Source of the DNA: an uncultured Verrucomicrobiae bacterium
Lineage (GTDB): Bacteria > Verrucomicrobiota > Verrucomicrobiia > Chthoniobacterales > UBA10450
Direction: 5' to 3'
Assembly: GCA_963756875.1 (NCBI GenBank)
Contig: CAVWPA010000003.1
Coordinates: 864,001 to 928,000, forward strand
Length of the DNA stretch: 64,000 bases
A program made the position numbers and the translations under genes. The notes under the pieces are model-generated. The model made no database searches. It had not been told where the DNA came from and saw nothing but the letters and a program-made list of their open reading frames with translations. This document shows positions 16,940-45,585 of this stretch, piece by piece; the first letter of the stretch is position 1, and every line of letters begins with the position of its first letter.

Positions 16940-17632
16940 ATGTTGCGCCCCCCCCTCGTGCTTGTCGCCCTGTTCGCGTCTGCTTCATTCGCCCATGGCG
17001 GTGCACTCCTGCCCGACCCTGGGAACCGTATCGTTGTCAGCGTCCGCGACCAAAAGCTGATGTTGGTAAGAAACGGTGCGAAGGTTGCCACGTACCCGGT
17101 TTCCACGTCCAGGTTCGGCCTCGGCGACGCGTGGGGCCGAATGACTACGCCTCTCGGGTTTCTTCAGGTGGTGCGGAAAATTGGCGATAACGCGCCCGCG
17201 GGAGCGGTGTTTCACAATCGCCGCTGGACCGGTGAAGTGTTGCGTCCGAATGCGCCAGGGCGCGATCCCATCGTCACGCGCATCATCTGGCTGCGTGGCC
17301 TGGAAGCGTCTAACGCGCACGCATTCAGCCGGTGCATTTATATTCACGGCACGCCGCAGGAGAAAAATATCGGTCGACCGGCGAGCTACGGCTGCATCCG
17401 AATGAAGTCGAAAGATGTCGCGTCGCTTTATAATCAAATACCCCTCGGTACCATCGTTCAAATTGTGCCCGGACGTTTGCCAAAGCCGGCGAAGGCCGCT
17501 GCCACTCCCGTGGGTTCAGTGCTGCGCGCCAGTTTCTCCGATGCCAGGGCGGCTTCGTCCGCCGGCGAGAAGAAATCGCACAGAACTGCGGCCCGAAAAA
17601 AATTAATCGCTTCCCGTCATCGCGACACCTGA
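16940..17632 (+). CDS. L,D-transpeptidase (YkuD domain), exported
   Basis: Signal peptide, YPVSTS, TPLG, IYIHGT...SYGCIRM catalytic motif. Confidence 0.92.
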   Translation: MLRPPLVLVALFASASFAHGGALLPDPGNRIVVSVRDQKLMLVRNGAKVATYPVSTSRFGLGDAWGRMTTPLGFLQVVRKIGDNAPAGAVFHNRRWTGEVLRPNAPGRDPIVTRIIWLRGLEASNAHAFSRCIYIHGTPQEKNIGRPASYGCIRMKSKDVASLYNQIPLGTIVQIVPGRLPKPAKAAATPVGSVLRASFSDARAASSAGEKKSHRTAARKKLIASRHRDT

Positions 17633-35683: not shown

Positions 35684-38600
35684 ATGGAGAAACCAATGAC
35701 TAGAAACGTACCTAACAAACTGGGATTGCTTCGCGCCGCTTTCGTAGCCGGTGTCGGGCTGCCTCTGATCATCGCCACGAGCGTCCGCGCGCAAAACCTA
35801 GCGCCTGCGGAGCAAAATGAGCCTCGGCCGGCGGAAGCGACAGCCGAGCGCGTTATCGTGACCGGGTCCAACATTCCGACGGCGGAAGAAGTTGGTGCAA
35901 ACCCGGTTCTCACGTTGAACCACGACGTCATCAAAAAGGCGGGCGTGCGCACCACGGAAGAACTTCTGCAGCGGCAACCGGTCATCAACGCCAACCAGAT
36001 CCCGGTGCAAAATAACGGAACCAGCCAGTCCGGTCCGTCCGGCACCAGTTCGATCGCCCTTCGCGGGCTTGACGTTCAGGCCACTCTCGTTCTGGTCGAT
36101 GGCAAGCGCGTCGCGCCCTATCCGGGTGCCTCGTTCGTGGATTTAAATAATATTCCGCAGCCGTTCATCGGCAGCATCGAAATTCTGAAACAGGGCGCTT
36201 CCGCCGTGTACGGAGCCGATGCGGTAGCCGGCGTCGTGAACATTAAGTTGAATAAGGATTTTCGCGGCGTCCAGGCGACGGTCGAGTACGGCAATGTGAT
36301 GGATAAGAATGCCGCCCGCTACCTGGGCGACGTTCTCTTTGGTGTTGGCGACGACAAAACTTCGATCACCGGCGATATCTTCTACTATCACCACAATTCG
36401 ACGTTCAATGGTGACTACGGCAACTCCGCAGTCCCGCCGTTCCTGAGTTCCAACGCCAGCCCGTGGAACGTCCAGGTAACCCGTGCCGCGGTACTGTCCA
36501 ACCCTACAAATGGGTTCGGGGCACAGGATCCGTTTCCCAATATAAATCACACCGACAATCCCACGCTCTTCGACAACTTGTCGGTAGCACGGTTACCACT
36601 ATTACCTGAATGCGGCCGGTCTGACGGCGATCGGCAACACGGATAACAGCTCAACCGGAAGAGACAACGCCACCAACATGGCCATGATCGATAGCATTCA
36701 TAAGCTGAATGTCGTGAGTTCGGGCGGCGTCTTCCTGGGGCTCACGCCGAACAACACGTTCTTTACGTCCAACCCGAGGAATTATCAGGATGCCCCCGGC
36801 AGCGCTTCAAATTGGCACTATGGCCAGGGACGTCTGCACGCTTTTAACTTCAACAAGTTCTCCAGTTCGTTCCCCGAGCAGGAGCGCTGGGGCGGTTACG
36901 CATCATTCATCCATAAGGTTTGCGACGATCAGGTGCAGGTCTATGGCGACTTCATGTATGACGACTCAAAGACGCATGATGAGTTGGCGCCAATTGCCAC
37001 CGGCTCGTTCCAAACAACCGGCAACCCGGTGATCGCCGTCCCGCCTCACATGGACTTGAACGGCATGGTTGGCGGCCCCGGAATGGAGTATGCCGGCACG
37101 CCGACCTACGCCGCGACCGGCGTGGACAACCATGCCTATAACCCGTTCAATCCGTTTAACCAGATTCTGTCCGGCGGCACCCGGGCCCGTATCTTCGACT
37201 TCGGCAACCGACTCATCGATAACGAAGCGTATGCCTGGCTGACCACTCTGGGTGTTAAAGGCGACAAGCTGTTTGATGGAAACTGGGGTTACGACTCCTT
37301 CTTCCGTTACAGCCAGACCGACTTGGTTTCCCGGATCGTGACGGCCGCGGGCACCCGGTTCGCCGAGATCATGAATGCGAACAGTCCGATCTTCGACCCG
37401 GCTTCGAGCCAGTATATCGGGACGACTGTTCCGTACGATCCGTTCTACCACTACCTCGGCCAGGAGCCGCCAACCAACCGTTACTCCGTCAATTACGCCC
37501 GAGCGAATGTTCGCGACCTGTCGAAATCCTCGGTTGCGCAGGCCGGTGTGAATATCTATACGGTAGACCTGTTTGATCTGCCGGCAGGCGGGGTCGGCTT
37601 TGCCGTCGGCGGTGACTGGCGCCGGGAGGAATACAAGTTCAACCCCGACGATCAAGACAGACTTGGGAACCAGCTTGGTGTCGGCATAGCTCCGTATGCC
37701 GCGGGCGGTCGCAAGACTTATGCGTTCTATGCGGAAACGACGATCCCAATCTTCAGCCCGACGATGGGCGTTTGGGGATTGCACTCTCTGGAGTTCGATG
37801 CCGCTGGCCGGTTTGAGGACTTCAGGAATAACAGCACCAACGTGTTGGTTCCGAGAGTGTCCTTGCGCTGGCAGCCGTTTGACGAGGAACTGACCCTCCG
37901 CGCCTCGTGGGGTGAAGGCTTCCTCGAGCCGTCGCTCAGCGAGCTCTATAATCCGCCGTTTTTCACTCTGGCGCCGACCGTCTATCACGGCCACGCGGAG
38001 CCGGAAACAACGTACGAAGTCACTACGAACAAAAACCTGAAACCGGGAGATTCCCGCGACTTCACTGCCGGGTTTGTCTACACCCCGAAGTGGATGCCAC
38101 AAGGGCAAACGTTGACCGTCGGAGCAGATTTCTGGGACATTGAGCGCAGCGGTGTTGTTACCCAACCCAGCGCTGCGGAAGTGGTGCAGCGTTTTATACA
38201 TAATAACCTGCTTCCCGGCGAAGTCGTCCAGATCGACCCGGTTAGTGATAGCGTGAACTTTGTGAAATCCGGTTTCCTCAACGCGGGGAAACAGAAGGCG
38301 CGTGGCGTCGATCTCACGCTGCTTTACCAATACCAGACACCCAACTGGGGAACCTTCACCTGGACGTCCCAGGCGACCTACCTTGACTCGTTCATCTTCC
38401 AGTTGGATACGACAACGAGGCCACACGAAGTCAGCGGGCGTGCCAACAACGATCCGTTTGAGGGCGCGTTCTTCGGCGCGGCGACCGCCGGCGACGGCTG
38501 GTTGAAGTGGAAAGGCGCATCGACGCTCGACTGGTCGTGGCACAACTTCGACTTCGCCTTTACCGAGCACTATTGGGACGGGTTTAAGGAGGAGTGGTAC

Positions 38601-38990
38601 CCCGCGGCGTTGCGTGGAAAGTTTTTCTTCAACCCGGCTTACCCGGAGCGTGACCATTACGTGAGCCAGCGTTGGTTCTCCGATATCGACACTTCTTACA
38701 CTCTACTCTTCACGCCTCCTGTGGAGTCGCAGCCGGTGGCCGGCTACTCGAAGGGCGGCAAGGAAATGATGACGGGCAAGGACAAGCAGGTCGAAACGGC
38801 CGCTTATGAAATGCCATGCTGGAAAACCATCCTGAACAACACGACGCTGACGTTCGGTGTGACCAACCTGTTTGGCCAAGACCCGCCGCAGATGTACGGG
38901 ACCTTGTATTCCAACTCCGACAACTATCCGGGCTCCCTGTACGACAACCTGGGACGCTTCTACTACATCCGGTTAACAAAGAAGTTCTAG
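35684..38990 (+). CDS. TonB-dependent outer-membrane transporter, apparent +1 frameshift near 36580-36600
   Basis: Signal peptide, RVIVTGSNI TonB box, LRGL...TLVLVDGKR, IEILKQGASAVYGADAVAGVVNI plug, barrel ending GVTNLF...YDNLGRFYYIRLTKKF with C-terminal Phe. Confidence 0.92.
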
Positions 38991-39017
38991 GCGTCGCAAA
39001 CGTTAGGTAATAATTCA

Positions 39018-39055
39018 AGAGGCAGCCTCGCTTTCGGGGCTGCCTCTTTGCTTTT
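39018..39055 (+). terminator. Rho-independent terminator after the TonB-dependent transporter
   Basis: AGAGGCAGCCTCG-CTTT-CGGGGCTGCCTCT followed by TTGCTTTT. Confidence 0.85.
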
Positions 39056-39064
39056 GTGATCTCT

Positions 39065-39282
39065 GCTGGTGGGGCGAGACTCTGTCGAGCCGACGAATAA
39101 ACTCAGGTCTGAATTTTCCTGGCCAGCGACGCTGTTCGGAATGACCGGGGTTTTCAACGAGGCTGCTTGGAATTTGAAGCTCTGTTTTTCGTTTTTCAGA
39201 CCCAGGGTAGGATTTTGTCGGCTCGACAGAGTTTACCCGCCGCAGGCGGCGCCAAAGGCGACCAGGGTCTCGTCCCACCAGC
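39065..39282. repeat. REP doublet with an interrupted right arm
   Basis: GCTGGTGGGGCGAGACTCTGTCGAGCCGAC ... GTCGGCTCGACAGAG[insert]TCTCGTCCCACCAGC. Confidence 0.75.
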
Positions 39283-39366
39283 GTGAGTTCGAAATCTTCT
39301 CCGAAACTCCGGGCGATCGTCATGGTTGAATCTTTGACGGTCAAAAACTGAGAGGTAACTTTTAAT

Positions 39367-39669
39367 ATGAAAACATCAAAGGCGGTAAAGATTGTGTCCT
39401 TGCTGTTAAGTGGAGCGTTCTTGGCGACCCCAATGTTTGGCGGGCAACCCAAGGACAAATCGTCCAAGAACAAAGACAAGGACCAGTATGAATATGTCTT
39501 TGTCACTGGATCGAGCATCCCTCGGAAGGTGAAGATTAAGTCTGTCGGGAACGCGATTTCGAACCTGCGCGTCTACAACCGAAAAGAGATCGATCAAACC
39601 GGCCGAGCGACAACGGCAGGCGTTCTGGCCCAGGACCCGTCCGTTACGGTGAGGGGCCCCAAGGGCTAA
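39367..39669 (+). CDS. Small exported protein resembling a free TonB-box / plug N-terminus
   Basis: Signal peptide, then YVFVTGSSIP...LRVYNRKEIDQTGRATTAGVLAQDPSV, which aligns by eye with the adjacent transporter N-terminus. GAGG upstream of the ATG. Confidence 0.78.
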   Translation: MKTSKAVKIVSLLLSGAFLATPMFGGQPKDKSSKNKDKDQYEYVFVTGSSIPRKVKIKSVGNAISNLRVYNRKEIDQTGRATTAGVLAQDPSVTVRGPKG

Positions 39670-39684
39670 GTTTAGAAGAGAGTG

Positions 39685-39808
39685 AGCACTGTTGAAAAGC
39701 TTAGCCGGAGCGGGATTCCTGTGGTGGCAGCCGTGCCGGCTGCGTTACGTTTTGCAGGCGACACGCCTGCCTCTACAGAGTTACGATAAGAGGCTTTTCA
39801 ACAGTGCT
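39685..39808. mobile_element. MITE family A (124 bp) carrying a REP doublet
   Basis: Perfect 16-bp TIR AGCACTGTTGAAAAGC / GCTTTTCAACAGTGCT. Perfect 9-bp flanking direct repeat AAGAGAGTG at 39676-39684 and 39809-39817. Confidence 0.9.
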
Positions 39809-40030
39809 AAGAGAGTGCAAGCATGCTCTGGCATGCGCGGAGCACAGCTTGAGCTGCCGGCCTGCAAGCGCCTATAGCGGACGCTGGCTGGGAGTCTGGA
39901 AGACCCAAAATACCGGGATTTGCCGTAAACGCAGTTTGGCTGTGGGAAGCGGCACCCGAGGGGATGTCCAAGGTCTCAGGGATAACGTCCGGATCGCGGC
40001 CTGAAGGATCAGTTTTACGCCGATGCACGT

Positions 40031-40072
40031 GGGCCGGCAGGATTGACAAAATCCTGGCCCAGATTGTATTCA
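40031..40072 (+). promoter_or_regulatory. Putative sigma70 promoter with a palindrome over the -35 box
   Basis: TTGACA at 40043-40048 inside CAGGATT-gacaa-AATCCTG. Weak -10 (TGTATT/TATTCA) 16-18 nt downstream. Confidence 0.45.
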
Positions 40073-40245
40073 GCTTCCGGGCGCGATTGATGGCCCTGAT
40101 GACGCTTTGGGCTCGATGGGCTCGACGAAAGGGTCGCCCCCTCCTGGGGCCGAGCGCGGCGGGCTTTGCACCGCCATAGAGGGAGCCTAAAGCGGGGGTT
40201 GTAGGGCATGTCGGGCGACATGGGATGCCTCGGGCAATCAAAGTC
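40073..40245 (+). ncRNA. Candidate structured non-coding RNA or leader, family not recognised
   Basis: Nested stems TTGATGGCCC/GGGCAATCAA, CGCTTTGGGCTC/GAGCCTAAAGCG, GCTCG/CGAGC, GCCCC/GGGGC, CATGTC/GACATG. G-U pairs favour the + strand. No credible ORF. Confidence 0.35.
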
Positions 40246-40461
40246 CACAGGTTGCATTCACTCTAGGAAGTCGGCATTTACAGCACGCCAGATCTGCTCC
40301 ATGCCGGGCTGATCTAATCACCGAGGGAAGAGGCTTAGAACCCTGGGCGCATCCTTCCTTGGCACCTTCTCTTGCCGAGGCGCTGGAAACCCGTCCGGCT
40401 GGGGAGTTTGTGCGCGATATAAGGGCTGGCACAGGCTGTGCTTATAATCATCATAACCACC

Positions 40462-41100
40462 ATGATTATTATAAGCCTTCTTCCCTTTACCGCGCGCAAA
40501 GCTTTCTGCCTGGCCGGCGCTATCCTGGTCCTTTGCTCGGTCTCTTCCTTCGCCAGACCGGTGTTCGTCAATGTCGATAAGACTCCTTATGACCGGCAAA
40601 TGACCCGAATCCGCCCTGTCCTGCTTTCCCGCCACACCGGCGGACACGAAGGCGTCTCGCTGGCCATCGTGAATAACTGGATTTGGAATCTGCGCGCGAT
40701 CCCATACGGGTTTTGCCCACAATGGAAGACCCCGGCCGAAGTGGAATCCGGAAGCATGGCCGATTGCAAAGGCAAAGCGGTCGCCCTTTATGACATCATG
40801 CGCTCGCACGGCGCGCAAAACGTCCGGCTGGTTATCGGGAAGCGCTCCTGGATGAGCCGAAAAACGCACGCCTGGTTGGAATGGACGACCCCTAATGGTA
40901 CATATGTGCTCGATCCGACGATCAACTGGACCGCAGCGCGCGTCTCCCGGTTCGGCAGCAGCTTTTACATTCCGTTCTACGCGTACGCTGGGAACCACAA
41001 ATACCGCGCTGCCAGTTCGACCATGTTCGCCAAGGCCGAGACAACGACAAGGCGCCATCACAATCTCTGGGCGGTCAACTCCGCTCCTGCTGCTCATTAA
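40462..41100 (+). CDS. Exported transglutaminase-like cysteine peptidase (BTLCP / LapG-like)
   Basis: Signal peptide, W.TPAE....ADCKGKA (Cys), THAWL (His), YVLDP (Asp). Confidence 0.8.
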   Translation: MIIISLLPFTARKAFCLAGAILVLCSVSSFARPVFVNVDKTPYDRQMTRIRPVLLSRHTGGHEGVSLAIVNNWIWNLRAIPYGFCPQWKTPAEVESGSMADCKGKAVALYDIMRSHGAQNVRLVIGKRSWMSRKTHAWLEWTTPNGTYVLDPTINWTAARVSRFGSSFYIPFYAYAGNHKYRAASSTMFAKAETTTRRHHNLWAVNSAPAAH

Positions 41101-41230
41101 GATCGGTGGTTGTAGACGTTTCGCTTTGCGAAACGCGGCGCTGAAATGGTTAAGCGGCCAGGCGCCGCGCCGCCCCGGGAGGCCGGCATCCGGTCCCGGA
41201 AAAAAGTTCGGGTTGCATAAAAAATTTGTA

Positions 41231-41259
41231 TTGCAAAGAGCGAGGCAGGGCGCTATCAT
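41231..41259 (+). promoter_or_regulatory. Sigma70-type promoter
   Basis: TTGCAA-17 nt-TATCAT with an A-rich upstream tract, 13 nt before ATG 41273. Confidence 0.7.
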
Positions 41260-41272
41260 CGTTTTTGTATCT

Positions 41273-42595
41273 ATGGAAATTATGAGCGCACATCCTTCTC
41301 GTTTTGCCCGTGTCACAGGCCTCGTTTCTTGCATCGTTCTCGCCCATGTTTCAGGAGCGATTGCCGCGGAACTGGTTTTGCAAAAAGTCCCGCCGCTCAC
41401 GGTCGAGCAGGTGCCGGGTTATCCGCAAAATCTCGCGCGTTATCATTTCGGCGCGCAAGTAGAAGCGTTGCCGGAAAGTAATCCGATCGCCAGCTTGCAG
41501 CTGAGCTCGAATTCGGAAGACCATAACGTTGCCGAGGCGGCATTGCTGTGCGACGACCCTACGACCGGGTATGCCCTGTCCAATGGCAAGACCACTTTGC
41601 TTATCTCGCTTTCCAAGATCGAAAACATCGACAGCGTCTCGTTCCTGAACAACGGAGCGAAAGGTCAAGTGACCATTGCGGTTTCCAGCGCAAATTTGCC
41701 TGCCAGCAGCGCGCAGTGGCGGAAGGTCGCAAAGCAAGAGCTCAGCGGTGATGTCGTGAAAGCAGAGATCGGCCCGACCGACGCAAAATACGTCAAACTC
41801 ACTTTTAATGTGAGCGCGTCTGGTCGCATTGCCAGCCTGGGCGTCTATTCGCCGCCGGCTGTTTCGGATTTCACGGCGCCACGTACACGCGAACCGATTT
41901 CAGATCAGCCGGGAAATGTTCAGCTGGTGAGTTACAACCTGACGGACGTCCATGCGAAGGCGCGAGCGCTTTACGTCAGCTCGGGTAGCGATCTGGCAAA
42001 GGCAAACAGCATGATTGATGAGCAACCGGCCACCGCTTACAGCTTTGCCGCGAGCGACGCAGCCCCAACCGCTGTAATCGATCTCGGGAAGGAAATGTCA
42101 GTGCGCCGTATTTCCGCAATTTACTCGCCGCGACAAGGCATGATGGATTTCTATGTGCTTCAAAATCTGCCGGCCGCGCAACCGGACCGGGCATCGCCAA
42201 AGTCTCTGCGCTTGAGCGCGAGCACGCTGGCCGATATGAGACCGGTCGGTTCGGTCGCAGACAACGGGACCGGCCGCGCCGCGATCGATTTCCCATCTGT
42301 TACCGGCCGTTACATTCTGGTGAAATGGACTCCAGCGACGGCGCGAGACGCTTCTTTCGCCATCGCCGAGATCGCTGCCTTTAGCGGCAGCGCCAGGCAA
42401 GGCAGCCTGACGATGGCAGCCAATTCCGTCAGCAACGCCGGTGTCGAGTCGGACGGAAAAGATGTGAAAGATTTCGGTTCAGGCAAAGACGCGAAAGAAA
42501 TGCCTGAAGAAGGCCCGGCCGAAGGTCCTCCTCCAACATTGCCCGATCCGCCTCCATTCGTGTTCGTGCCGGAGATCGTTCCGACCAGTCCCTAA
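41273..42595 (+). CDS. Exported protein with two discoidin / F5-8C-like beta-sandwich regions and a GKD-rich, Pro-rich tail
   Basis: Signal peptide. AKYVKLTF, IDLG...V..I and GRYILVKW...IAEI resemble F5/8C strands. Tail SDGKDVKDFGSGKDAKEMPEEGP...PPPF. Confidence 0.7.
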   Translation: MEIMSAHPSRFARVTGLVSCIVLAHVSGAIAAELVLQKVPPLTVEQVPGYPQNLARYHFGAQVEALPESNPIASLQLSSNSEDHNVAEAALLCDDPTTGYALSNGKTTLLISLSKIENIDSVSFLNNGAKGQVTIAVSSANLPASSAQWRKVAKQELSGDVVKAEIGPTDAKYVKLTFNVSASGRIASLGVYSPPAVSDFTAPRTREPISDQPGNVQLVSYNLTDVHAKARALYVSSGSDLAKANSMIDEQPATAYSFAASDAAPTAVIDLGKEMSVRRISAIYSPRQGMMDFYVLQNLPAAQPDRASPKSLRLSASTLADMRPVGSVADNGTGRAAIDFPSVTGRYILVKWTPATARDASFAIAEIAAFSGSARQGSLTMAANSVSNAGVESDGKDVKDFGSGKDAKEMPEEGPAEGPPPTLPDPPPFVFVPEIVPTSP

Positions 42596-42610
42596 CGAAT
42601 TACCCGTAGA

Positions 42611-42651
42611 AAAGAGCCCGTCCTTCGGAAAGACCGTTGGACGGGCTTTTG
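42611..42651. terminator. Bidirectional terminator between convergent genes
   Basis: AAAG-AGCCCGTCC ... GGACGGGCT-TTT. Confidence 0.75.
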
Positions 42652-42662
42652 CTTTCCAATGG

Positions 42663-43931
42663 CTAGAGTTCGTCGCGAATGATTTCAAAAATCTGCGTGT
42701 TGTCGATGCTTCCGTGTAGCATTTCCGTTCCGGGACCGTCGCCGAGCGCAACCACATCCTCCACGGTCTCCAGCGCCGATTTCGTGTAGAACGCCGCCGG
42801 TTCCAAATTTCCGGCTGCGGTATTTTCCGGGACTCCATTCTCACTGGGAGTTTTGGCCATGCCGTAAGAGCGCGTTCCCTTCGGCCCATTCGCCCAGGTA
42901 ATCCACGGTTGTCCGGCAGAGTTCAATCCAAGCAAAGCGAGGCCGCTATCTTTGCGAAATGGAAATCCATTGAGACTAAGGCCACCGATGGCAACGTCGC
43001 CGCAAACAATGATCGTCGATCCCGCGCCGGCGTAACTTCGCGCTACCGAGACGGCGCGGTCGAGCTCAGCCGTCTGGCTAAAAACCGTTTCCGCGTCGTT
43101 TTGCTCGGCCGCTTTTCGCATCAGACCGGCATCGACCACGAGGAGATATCCTCCAGGGTTGTATTGTAGCAGTTCGATCGCTCGCCGCACCATGTCCGAC
43201 AAACTCGGTTGATCGTTTCCCTGTTTGATTTGATTTGCAAATGCCAGGTTGCTCTGGCTGAAAACGCCGAAAAGTTTTGGACGGCGCCAGGCGGGAATCG
43301 CATCGAGTTCTGCGCGCGTCCGAACGATATCGAAACCGTTTCCGCGCAATTCCAGCAGAAGATCGCGGGCATCCTGCCTTTGCCCGTTTTTCGTTTCCGG
43401 AAGAAACTGGGCGCCGCCGCCGCCCAGCGCGATATCGATCTTTCCGCTCCCTGCCAGTTGCGCGGCGAGATTATCCTCATCGGCCGGGTCGGTGCTGTGA
43501 GCGTAAAAAGCCGCGCAGGTTGCATTGGTTAATTTCGCATTCGTTACCAGGCCGAGCGCGCGGCCATGGTCCCGCGCGAGATCCATGATGCTGGGAAGCG
43601 CCTTTTCATCGGTATCCATCGCGATCGAGCGGTTGTTCACTTTCTTGCCGGTCGCGATGGCACTGGCAGCGGCAGCTTGATCGCTCACTGCAAAATCCTT
43701 CGAATAATTGGTGATTAAGGCGACGTGGCTCATGGAGTCCAGAGCAAGACGCGCATCGGCGCCGCCTGTATAAACTCGAGTGGCCGCGAGACGTTCCGGG
43801 GCAAGCCCCTCCCCGATGAACAGAATGATCCCAAACGGCTTTTGTATGACCCAATGCTTGAAATAAAGAACGCCGAGACCGACGAACACAAAAAGACAAA
43901 AAAGTGCCAGGAGCTGGTTCCGCCACTTCAT
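42663..43931 (-). CDS. Alkaline phosphatase family protein, membrane-anchored, catalytic residues substituted
   Basis: IILFIGEG, DQAAAASAIATG.K, GLVT....NAT.AAFYAH, PSLSDM...AI..L, GY.L.VDAG, EDV, G.IDNT.IF. Confidence 0.85.
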   Translation of the reverse strand: MKWRNQLLALFCLFVFVGLGVLYFKHWVIQKPFGIILFIGEGLAPERLAATRVYTGGADARLALDSMSHVALITNYSKDFAVSDQAAAASAIATGKKVNNRSIAMDTDEKALPSIMDLARDHGRALGLVTNAKLTNATCAAFYAHSTDPADEDNLAAQLAGSGKIDIALGGGGAQFLPETKNGQRQDARDLLLELRGNGFDIVRTRAELDAIPAWRRPKLFGVFSQSNLAFANQIKQGNDQPSLSDMVRRAIELLQYNPGGYLLVVDAGLMRKAAEQNDAETVFSQTAELDRAVSVARSYAGAGSTIIVCGDVAIGGLSLNGFPFRKDSGLALLGLNSAGQPWITWANGPKGTRSYGMAKTPSENGVPENTAAGNLEPAAFYTKSALETVEDVVALGDGPGTEMLHGSIDNTQIFEIIRDEL

Positions 43932-44025
43932 CTCGGCGAGTAGAAGCCGCGCGTGACTGTTGTCAATCCCGCAACCACGGGAAAGCGCTTGTCGATTCTG
44001 ATAACTGCCGCCAGAGTGCCCACGT

Positions 44026-45585
44026 ATGGCGGGACCGGTCATGCTGATCATTCGCGACGGTTGGGGGATTAATCCCGGCGGAAAAGCAAAGCGAGACGAA
44101 AACGGAGATGCTACTCTTCTCGCGCGAACGCCGTTTCACGACCGGCTCTATCGAGATTATCCGGGCAGTAATCTCAGCGCCAGTGGGCCCGACGTCGGTT
44201 TGCCCGAAGGACAAATGGGCAATTCCGAGGTGGGCCACCTTAATTTGGGCGCGGGCAGAATCGTTTACCAGGACCTGACTCGAATTAACAAGGCGATCGT
44301 CGACGGCGAGCTGGCTCACAATCGCGTTGCACAGGAAGCATTCGCGGCGGCCCGCGGTCATCGACTCCATCTGCTCGGACTTGTTTCGGACGGCGGCGTG
44401 CACAGCCACTACTTGCACATGATCGCTCTGGCCAATGCCGCCAGTGCGGCAGGCGTTGGGCAGATTTTTGTCCACGCCTTCACTGACGGGCGCGATTCGT
44501 CCCCGACGGGTGGATCGGATTTCCTGAAAATTTGCGAAAAGCAACTTCGCGCGAGCGGTGCGAAAATCGTCACGGTCGTAGGGCGCTATTTTGCAATGGA
44601 CCGCGATCGGCGCTGGGACCGAACCAAAAAAGCCTGGGATGCCATCGTTTTTGGTCGCGGCGAGATTTGCAAATCGTCGCCGGCCGAAGCGCTGGAGCGG
44701 CAATATAAGGCCGGCAAAACCGATGAATTCATGCCTCCGCTCATTTTTGCCCATGCGAACGAGCAGCGCATCCGCGACGGTGACACTGTTCTGTTTTTTA
44801 ATTTTCGCGCTGATCGTGCCCGGCAATTGTCGCAGGCTTTTCTGCTAAAAGATTTCGACGGTTTTGATCGTGGAGCGTGGCCACGAGTTCACTTTGTCTC
44901 GCTCACGCAATACGATGTGCGCTATGCCGCGCCGTTTGTTTTTGCGCCACAGGAACTGGCAAACATTCTCGGCGAAGTGGTGAGCGGGGCCGGCAAAACA
45001 CAGTTGCGTATCGCCGAGACGGAAAAATATGCGCACGTGACCTACTTTTTTAATGGCGGAGTTGAACGCCCGTTTCCCGGCGAAGACCGCAAACTGATCC
45101 CTTCGCCAAAGGTGGCCACCTACGACTTAAAACCGGAGATGAGCGCGTTTGAGGTGACCGACGAGCTGCTGGCTAACATGGCAAATTACGACTTGATCAT
45201 CCTGAATTTTGCCAACCCGGACATGGTGGGGCACACCGGAATTGTCGAAGCGGGGATCAAAGCGGTTGAAACAGTGGACGAATGTTGTTCGCGGATCATT
45301 CCCAGACTTCTCGATCTGGGCGGCAAATGCATCGTTACGGCCGATCACGGTAACTGCGAGCAAATGCGCAATCCGGACGGTTCACCTAACACAGCGCACA
45401 CGACAAACCTGGTGCATTTCGTGTATGTCGCCCAGGGCGCGGGAGAATTTCGCTGCGAGGATGGAATTCTTGCCGATGTTGCGCCAACACTTCTGTTTCT
45501 GCTTGGAATGGAGAAACCCGGCGAAATGACCGGCCGAAATTTGCTGGTACCGGTCAATCAGACGACTTCGGCCGCGGGCACCTGA
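44026..45585 (+). CDS. gpmI: 2,3-bisphosphoglycerate-independent phosphoglycerate mutase
   Basis: DGWG, GQMGNSEVGH, SDGGVHS, NFRADR, AETEKYAHVT, DMVGHTG, TADHGN. Confidence 0.97.
   Translation: MAGPVMLIIRDGWGINPGGKAKRDENGDATLLARTPFHDRLYRDYPGSNLSASGPDVGLPEGQMGNSEVGHLNLGAGRIVYQDLTRINKAIVDGELAHNRVAQEAFAAARGHRLHLLGLVSDGGVHSHYLHMIALANAASAAGVGQIFVHAFTDGRDSSPTGGSDFLKICEKQLRASGAKIVTVVGRYFAMDRDRRWDRTKKAWDAIVFGRGEICKSSPAEALERQYKAGKTDEFMPPLIFAHANEQRIRDGDTVLFFNFRADRARQLSQAFLLKDFDGFDRGAWPRVHFVSLTQYDVRYAAPFVFAPQELANILGEVVSGAGKTQLRIAETEKYAHVTYFFNGGVERPFPGEDRKLIPSPKVATYDLKPEMSAFEVTDELLANMANYDLIILNFANPDMVGHTGIVEAGIKAVETVDECCSRIIPRLLDLGGKCIVTADHGNCEQMRNPDGSPNTAHTTNLVHFVYVAQGAGEFRCEDGILADVAPTLLFLLGMEKPGEMTGRNLLVPVNQTTSAAGT

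Follow-up and report, generated by a model that had tools for sequence, protein, structure and literature searches.

The window analyzed here is a stretch of 64,000 nucleotides from an uncultured Verrucomicrobiae bacterium (contig CAVWPA010000003.1, positions 864,001 to 928,000 of the forward strand). It encodes a TonB-dependent transporter (TBDT) in which one periplasmic turn is predicted to be enlarged to a lysine-rich loop of 45 amino acids (aa). A first-pass annotation had drawn attention to this loop as an insertion in a periplasmic turn, and nucleotides 38715-38826 of the plus strand translate exactly to the segment it described, PPVESQPVAGYSKGGKEMMTGKDKQVETAAYEMPCWK. The annotation further took the segment for a lineage-specific envelope tag shared with a neighboring exported protein, for example a Lys acceptor for an L,D-transpeptidase or a transglutaminase, and placed a gene for each enzyme type in the window.

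The transporter is spread over two open reading frames (ORFs; Table 1). The downstream ORF of 770 aa matches the Pfam family TonB_dep_Rec_b-barrel (PF00593, E 6.3e-22) and the upstream ORF the family Plug (PF07715, E 2.3e-18). Both align to the same full-length homologue, P0003 (1023 aa): in tblastn the barrel ORF is 82.6% identical to P0003 residues 279-1023 and the plug ORF, in frame +2, is 89.5% identical to residues 1-266. Judged by these alignments, the two ORFs are one TBDT gene read in two frames. We found no intact reading frame of the transporter in the window. Three-frame translation locates the shift between ~36572 and ~36602, and in blastx the homologues P0073, P0082 and P0102 run along frame 2 (to ~36571) and then along frame 3 (from ~36603), with ~7 residues between. 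The frame change falls in a variable surface-loop region and both halves are still 83-90% identical to the intact homologue. A sequencing indel would account for it, as would a true frameshift or a recent pseudogene.

P0003 was modelled by AlphaFold using a 107-sequence alignment (predicted local distance difference test, pLDDT, 82.7; predicted template modelling score, pTM, 0.82) and a second time using a 134-sequence alignment that included a sister family (pLDDT 83.4, pTM 0.83). A Foldseek search with the P0003 model found PfeA (E 3.5e-30), with PirA, BtuB and Cir close (up to ~1e-26 to 1e-25) and template modelling scores of ~0.7-0.8 to PfeA, PirA and BtuB, normalized to the target. The fold is that of a standard TBDT: like PfeA/FepA, BtuB, Cir and FhuA, the protein has a plug and a beta-barrel, an N-terminal TonB box and a C-terminal aromatic residue, the sequence ending in KKF with F1023 invariant. 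Unlike canonical TBDTs, which have ~600-750 aa, members of the window family have ~1020-1100 aa; their last periplasmic turn comprises 45-46 conserved residues where canonical transporters have a few, and their TonB-box region is conserved over ~20 residues.

Both models agree on the order of elements at the C-terminus: strand 917-928, coil 929-966, helix 967-972, strand 975-982, a loop of 31 residues and strand 1014-1022. The lysine-rich loop (residues 929-974, corresponding to window 38706-38840) joins the third-last and second-last barrel strands. Because TBDT barrels finish their last strand in the periplasm, stepping backwards from the C-terminal strand puts segment 929-974 on the periplasmic side, and short turns and long loops alternate in the models from the plug to the C-terminus. 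The periplasmic placement given by the first-pass annotation is thus borne out by the AlphaFold/DSSP topology of P0003 in both models. DSSP assigns 24 long beta segments after the plug (window 36270-38990), where 22 are expected, and the lengths of turns and loops between them alternate regularly. The barrel may exceed the usual size, or one modelled hairpin may be part of a surface loop; the question leaves the parity argument for the periplasmic side unaffected. With 45-46 residues the loop compares to 2-11 for every other periplasmic turn of the same models. Most of it is predicted to be disordered, with pLDDT <50 at residues 933-962 in the first model and 935-962 in the second. K944, referred to below as the main Lys, lies within this flexible segment, 16 residues past the preceding strand and 31 before the next one. 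The pLDDT rises to 66-69 in the block of residues 961-970 and to 90-92 in residues 971-980, around the helix at 967-972. A single-sequence search of the PDB gave 0 matches. A profile search of the PDB gave 19, the best stretch lying in the plug, and the barrel stretches of the two matches shown are weak and fall well ahead of the C-terminal region. No solved structure thus aligned by sequence to the C-terminal barrel, and the loop is seen in no solved relative. By its position in the models, the loop is the enlarged last periplasmic turn of a TBDT, and it defines the family.

We next consider how far this loop is conserved. A search with the C-terminal 291 residues returned 391 proteins with E <=0.001 among 2150 candidates. 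Within the best 120 of the 391, V[AP]G[YF]SK was present in 120/120 and PC.W[KQR] in 119/120, and the loop length was 43-48 aa in the 115/120 homologues matched by length pattern. The general pattern is PVE..PV-A-G-Y-S/A-K-(D)-G-G-K, after which come a stretch rich in K/D/E and the helix C-W-K/R-x-x-L-N. In the 107-sequence alignment E935, V939, G941, Y942, S943, K944, C967 and W968 are invariant and K947, K953 and K956 stand at 96-99%. The mean frequency of the top residue is 0.80 in the loop, 0.80 in the plug and 0.68 in the barrel. A chance or low-complexity origin of the loop is ruled out by this conservation (V[AP]G[YF]SK in 120/120). When the 57-residue loop region was searched with phmmer against 1.84 billion representatives, 30 proteins with E <=0.001 were found, 29 of them C-termini or fragments of transporters and one spurious. 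A sister family, reached from one divergent fragment, comprises 5729 proteins with E <=0.001 among 7281 candidates. Its loop reads VAGYAKDGGKNVxMKDGKDKNVMPVSTAEYNPCGWRAWLNGTT. At ~32% overall identity to P0003, G941 and W968 are still invariant there, and V939, Y942, K944 and C336 are kept at >=90% across the transporter family and the sister family together.

The lysines are the most persistent feature. The core pattern matched 283 of 289 unique C-terminal tails, with the main Lys (position +3) in 274 of the 283 (97%) and another Lys among the four residues that follow in 263. The nine tails lacking the main Lys carry R (3), N (2), E, A, Y or S (1 each), and a single one of the 283 has Lys neither at +3 nor in the next four positions. 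The most diverged paralogues (L034, L057, L069 and L079) have lost PVE..PVAG and kept S-K-[DG]-x-K. In a species-representative genome collection 366 stretches encode relatives, and 80 loci were kept. Titles of 77 loci were of Verrucomicrobia type, Chthoniobacterales or Candidatus (Ca.) Udaeobacter and one read 'bacterium'. The remaining two are labelled Acidobacteria (L035, 3181 bp; L049, a contig of 2931 bp); L049 nests inside a Verrucomicrobia clade in the tree, and both are probably binning contamination rather than gene transfer. Several metagenome-assembled genomes carry 3-4 transporter loci each, the paralogues differing in their surface loops. The loop is kept in orthologues and paralogues, and it carries a near-invariant Lys in a segment predicted to be disordered, both of which support the annotation. 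The loop is not, as 'lineage-specific' might suggest, a private insertion, but marks out a very large family, with the motif in 120/120 listed homologues. Three computable findings had been named beforehand as fatal to the annotation, and on two of them the loop came through, being periplasmic and conserved.

Cys residues are few in this family, just two or three in most members. The Cys of the loop helix, C967, co-varies with C336, located where strand 4 ends on the periplasmic side. The window and the loci supplied 61 sequences, of which 42 carry the complete pair, 17 neither Cys, two only C336 and none only C967; in the 134-sequence alignment spanning both families the pair is complete in 130, absent in two and reduced to a single Cys in two (one of each kind). 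Exactly two Cys were found in 66/80 proteins of the sister family. On a tree built without the Cys columns each Cys trait changes 4 times, and joint loss occurs at >=3 places. This co-variation on the tree is suggestive, and we infer that the helix Cys is probably disulfide-bonded to the strand-4 Cys.

Table 1. Features of the transporter gene and its periplasmic loop (positions in the window; residue numbers as in P0003).
Feature	Position	Strand	Basis or remark
N-terminal part of the transporter: signal peptide, TonB-box region, plug, first barrel strands	35684..36646	+	ends at the stop after the frameshift
Frame-shift zone of the transporter gene	36572..36602	+	three-frame translation, blastx
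Barrel part, C-terminus ...RLTKKF	36678..38990	+	Pfam, identity to P0003, Foldseek
Cys codon (C336), periplasmic end of strand 4 / turn T2	36921..36923	+	tblastn register, DSSP strand 321-336 / 321-334
Barrel strand before the loop, RWFSDIDTSYTL, residues 917-928	38670..38705	+	DSSP, both AlphaFold models
Whole periplasmic loop, 45 aa, LFTPPVESQPVAGYSKGGKEMMTGKDKQVETAAYEMPCWKTILNN	38706..38840	+	flanked by model strands 917-928 and 975-982
Core motif PVAGYSKGGKE; near-invariant Lys codon 38751-38753	38733..38765	+	alignment
Short helix CWKTIL at the loop end; conserved Cys codon 38817-38819, plus Trp	38817..38834	+	helix 967-972, both models
Second-last barrel strand TTLTFGVT	38841..38864	+	DSSP strand 975-982
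Last barrel strand, terminal Phe, stop codon	38958..38990	+	DSSP strand 1014-1022, end of ORF

We wondered how the transporters might benefit from such a loop. Every paralogue, whatever its surface loops, carries the same conserved and length-constrained arm, which argues for a partner common to all of them. We tentatively propose that the loop is a docking arm for this common partner, most likely the Ton machinery, a reading that we regard as possible rather than probable. A flexible arm of ~30 residues with fixed length and pattern would dock non-covalently to a periplasmic partner, most likely TonB's C-terminal domain and associated proteins, and it would act jointly with the unusually long conserved TonB-box region VIVTGSNIPTAEEVG. 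Both the partner and the docking role are what we infer from the features of the family. Stapled by a disulfide between the two Cys, the loop end would come to rest beneath the seam between strand 22 and strand 1.

The TonB-box region is the sole other disordered element exposed to the periplasm that is equally conserved. The motif RVIVTGS (~35849-35869), which we take to be the TonB box, follows the signal peptide and lies within the most conserved stretch of the transporter. Conservation extends over ~20 residues at 35849-35905 (VIVTGSNIPTAEEVG / VIVTGSNIPTAEEVGPNPV), the usual TonB box being much shorter. In the 107-sequence alignment residues 56-75 of this region form the 20-residue stretch of highest conservation (0.96), and they keep >=90% conservation across the two families, themselves ~32% identical overall. 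Contacts between TonB and periplasmic turns have precedents. According to one study, periplasmic turns of the FepA barrel become cross-linked to TonB in vivo (bioRxiv 10.1101/2021.12.08.471779), and a figure legend labels turns T8 and T9 of FhuA in a view of the sheet formed by TonB and the TonB box (PMC11658791). The loop turn is the next one round the barrel after the equivalents of FhuA T8/T9. Like those FepA and FhuA turns, which are contacted by TonB in vivo or lie next to it in a crystal complex, it is a periplasm-facing turn between strands. The FepA and FhuA turns are short, are not known to form conserved motifs and tolerate the loss of single residues, whereas the window family has a conserved 45-residue arm that would contact TonB.

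With ~35 conserved residues, a narrow range of lengths and a pattern that survives at ~32% identity, the loop resembles a binding element more than it does a mere acceptor. The three of 283 tails that tolerate Arg at the main Lys, where the charge is kept and the nucleophile lost, count for docking as well. An extra periplasmic element that contacts a periplasmic or inner-membrane partner is also familiar from TBDTs with a FecA-type N-terminal signalling domain. That domain is folded, N-terminal and limited to regulated transporters, whereas the loop is internal, predicted to be disordered and present in every paralogue.

Several observations weigh against a docking arm pinned by a disulfide. 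Neither AlphaFold run ordered the arm or packed it against anything, and the richer 134-sequence alignment of the second run left it unordered as well. No gene for TonB, ExbB or ExbD was found in the window or by pattern scans of the 80 loci; a pattern for the TonB C-terminus had 0 matches in the 80 loci, and of nine proline-rich ORFs none was TonB-like. A crude and uninformative co-variation analysis, by mutual information with average product correction over 255 full-length sequences (effective number, Neff, 84), gave no credible contacts of the loop and did not recover the Cys pair. For the Cys pair itself there are only 3-4 independent pairs of changes, and the sign test is not significant (p 0.5). 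The rim ends of strand 4 and strand 21 are ~26 A apart, as estimated from standard geometry over five strand steps, with 8 residues to span this distance, so that the bond is only just feasible. Finally, a Lys present in 97% of tails with a second Lys nearby (263/283) would suit a chemical acceptor no less than a contact.

This last point leads to the covalent tethering of the outer membrane, the main idea of the first-pass annotation and a rival to docking that still deserves real weight. The conserved Lys of G-Y-S-K, or the Lys three residues further on, would attack the acyl-enzyme of an L,D-transpeptidase, a reaction we consider doubtful here. The transporter would thereby be joined to meso-diaminopimelate (meso-DAP) of peptidoglycan, which again seems unlikely; and we hold similarly limited expectations for the proposed role, in which the paralogous family would serve as staples between membrane and wall and provide a fixed point against the pull of TonB. 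The geometry is in favor of it, since the segment is predicted to be periplasmic and disordered and the main Lys lies ~16 residues past the end of the strand, far enough to extend into the periplasm. The lysines themselves are what persists: the main Lys is found in 274/283 tails, only 1/283 lacks Lys at +3 and the next four positions, and S-K-[DG]-x-K survives in the most diverged paralogues. On the other side, 9/283 tails do without the main Lys, and the ~35 conserved residues of the loop far exceed the six-residue box that is reported to be sufficient in OutB (PMC12274547).

The comparison with known substrates cuts both ways. Lpp, the OutB 'Lpp box', Lys21 of LimB27, BbpA/B, Omp25 and Lpg1810 all combine a Lys or terminal amine with a flexible periplasmic segment in a membrane-anchored protein, as the loop does. 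V-A-G-Y-S-K agrees with the 'Lpp box' V-R-T-Y-K-K, as given in a review, at 3/6 positions in register (PMC12729407), a Tyr-x-Lys resemblance, and the same review provides with LimB27 Lys21 a precedent for an internal Lys (PMC12729407). One study detected in the peptidoglycan fraction a verrucomicrobial lipoprotein whose C-terminal Tyr and Lys are conserved, a possible Lpp-like protein of the phylum (PMC10260701). However, the attachments listed in the review are all terminal or near-terminal, none being a loop fixed at both ends and none a TBDT (PMC12729407). Unlike these L,D-transpeptidase substrates with their C-terminal, N-terminal or near-terminal sites, the main Lys sits in the middle of a loop held at both ends. 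An amine in a flexible periplasmic segment is thus present and an acceptor at or beside a terminus is not, and our literature search found no report of TonB-dependent proteins covalently attached to sacculi or meso-DAP. The study of the verrucomicrobial lipoprotein also records pal and ompA in a cultured member of the phylum, so that a new tether is not obviously required (PMC10260701).

A candidate enzyme is encoded at some distance. The YkuD gene at 16940-17632 (plus strand) specifies a secreted protein with a signal peptide and the catalytic motif HG...SYGCIRM and lies 22 kb from the transporter. There is no genomic linkage: a YkuD gene was found within 8 kb of the transporter in 0/80 loci. 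The best NCBIfam match of the YkuD protein is the L,D-carboxypeptidase ElsL (E 6.8e-30, 104 bits, below the cutoff of 270), and it matches Lpp-attaching or cross-linking transpeptidases less well (E ~1e-8).

A further possibility is that the loop binds nothing else. It would then be an intramolecular strap at the interface of the inner leaflet, pinned by the disulfide under the barrel seam, that stabilizes the barrel or guides its folding. A strap would agree with the conserved Y942, Y963, W968 and K944, residues typical of such interfaces, with the joint conservation of the two Cys and with the helix 967-972, which is modelled with moderate confidence. The remainder of the loop does not: residues 933-962 stay at pLDDT <50 even with the 134-sequence alignment, the fixed K/D/E pattern is left unexplained, and S-K-[DG]-x-K is retained in clades that have lost both Cys. 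We think it improbable that a strap is all the loop provides.

Just downstream of the transporter, at 39367-39669 (plus strand), lies a gene for a secreted protein of 100 aa. It has a signal peptide, a K/D-rich stretch, a TonB-box-like sequence (Y-V-F-V-T-G-S-x-I-P) and a segment like the start of a plug, and it carries basic KVKVK where the transporter has acidic AEEV. By sequence, it looks like a free-standing copy of the transporter N-terminus and could be a TonB decoy or regulator. We found no Pfam or NCBIfam match for it. The ESM Atlas holds many verrucomicrobial clusters of 82-98 aa, plus a weaker Plug-domain set, so the family is a real one, with homologues for example at L003 11336-11605, L005 11306-11593 and L029 11275-11523. 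The loop might dock this small protein. Its homologues are found downstream of the transporter in 23/80 loci, in several paralogous clades, and a strict pattern gave 12 genuine cases (including the window) among the 47 ends with >=700 nt of downstream flank. However, the loop is present in every member of the transporter family while the strict pattern leaves 34/47 ends without a match to the small gene, and the small gene adjoins loops with and without Cys alike. We consider such docking quite remote as an explanation of the loop.

The first-pass annotation had also linked the loop to the protein encoded at 41273-42595, an exported F5/8-type-C protein (Pfam E 2.2e-09). The motif it had noticed there is present (DGKDVKDFGSGKDAKE at 42452-42499), but its likeness to the loop is confined to the three-letter word GK[DE]. 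The tail of the neighbor, DGKD.KD.G.GKEAKEMPEEGPPAEGPPP.LPDPPPFVFVPEIVPTSP, is conserved within its own family. The expression [DSG]GK[ED].K, which the annotation had suggested for a motif scan, matches the neighbor twice and the transporter loop zero times. GK[DE] occurs 13 times in the 44 proteins of the window versus 6.0 in shuffles. Doubled GK[DE] within 10 residues is rare: the long ORFs of window and loci, 508,209 aa in all, contain 27 cases, 20 in TBDT loops, 3 in tails of the neighbor family and 4 elsewhere. Since the loci were selected for the TBDT, its share of this count is circular, and the count is no enrichment test. The core motif [VIL][APS]G[YF][SA]K gave 63 matches in 1.12 Mb of six-frame translation (window and 80 loci); 60 belong to the TBDT family, at the same position, and the other 3 lie in short junk ORFs. 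In these TBDT-centered sequences the motif is thus confined to the TBDT family and is not a tag common to exported proteins.

Neighbor and enzymes fare no better as partners of the transporter. The F5/8 protein is encoded next to it in 4/80 loci and a transglutaminase-like gene beside it in 5/80. The transglutaminase-like protein scores below the cutoff for Pfam Transglut_core3 (E 0.0088, 16.4 bits vs 26) and had no NCBIfam match, and a Gln is present in the loop in only 55% of 107 sequences, so that neither a bona fide transglutaminase nearby nor conserved Gln/Lys partners were found. With YkuD near 0/80 loci and the transglutaminase-like gene near 5/80, the link of the loop to the two enzymes of the window is unsupported. 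A transglutaminase-type Lys-Gln cross-link, or a common GK(D/E) envelope tag that one enzyme would read in both the loop and the F5/8 neighbor, is accordingly very hard to credit: doubled GK[DE] is rare and both segments are conserved, each in its own family, but the reading is largely refuted because co-occurrence is lacking. What the first-pass annotation said about position and conservation stands; its shared tag is unsupported because the neighbor and enzyme genes are unlinked and the core motif is confined to the TBDT family.

The genes around the transporter form a block at 35684-44051 that comprises the transporter, the small protein, the transglutaminase-like protein, the F5/8 protein and an alkaline phosphatase on the opposite strand. 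It is kept in 4-5/80 loci (L003, L011, L014, L029 and part of L005), which are the true orthologous neighborhoods; the other paralogues lie elsewhere. The tail of the F5/8 protein (42452-42595) consists of K/D/E repeats, then KEMPEEGPPAEGPPP.LPDPPP and then the terminal PFVFVPEIVPTSP. It is conserved across the 70 homologue tails shown of 120 aligned, from a search in which 1021 proteins had E <=0.001. The tail resembles neither PEP-CTERM nor any signal that we could name, and from its sequence it may be an unrecognized anchoring or sorting element.

The loop is a real and unusual feature of a very large transporter family in soil Verrucomicrobia. Periplasmic turns of TBDTs are usually short and treated as featureless, and here one of them is a 45-residue element that is conserved like the plug. 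The arm is kept in thousands of Chthoniobacterales and Ca. Udaeobacter proteins, which argues that something in the periplasm reads it. Should the near-invariant Lys of G-Y-S/A-K be joined covalently to peptidoglycan, which we judge unlikely, a paralogous TBDT family would act as a staple between outer membrane and wall in soil Verrucomicrobia of the Udaeobacter type. The recently found tethering of barrels would then gain a new phylum, a new class of protein and a new geometry of attachment, with a TBDT and a mid-loop lysine each known in such use for the first time and a barrel anchored against the pull of TonB. If instead the loop is a docking arm, it would represent a second recognition element besides the TonB box and give a handle on how TonB finds its transporters.

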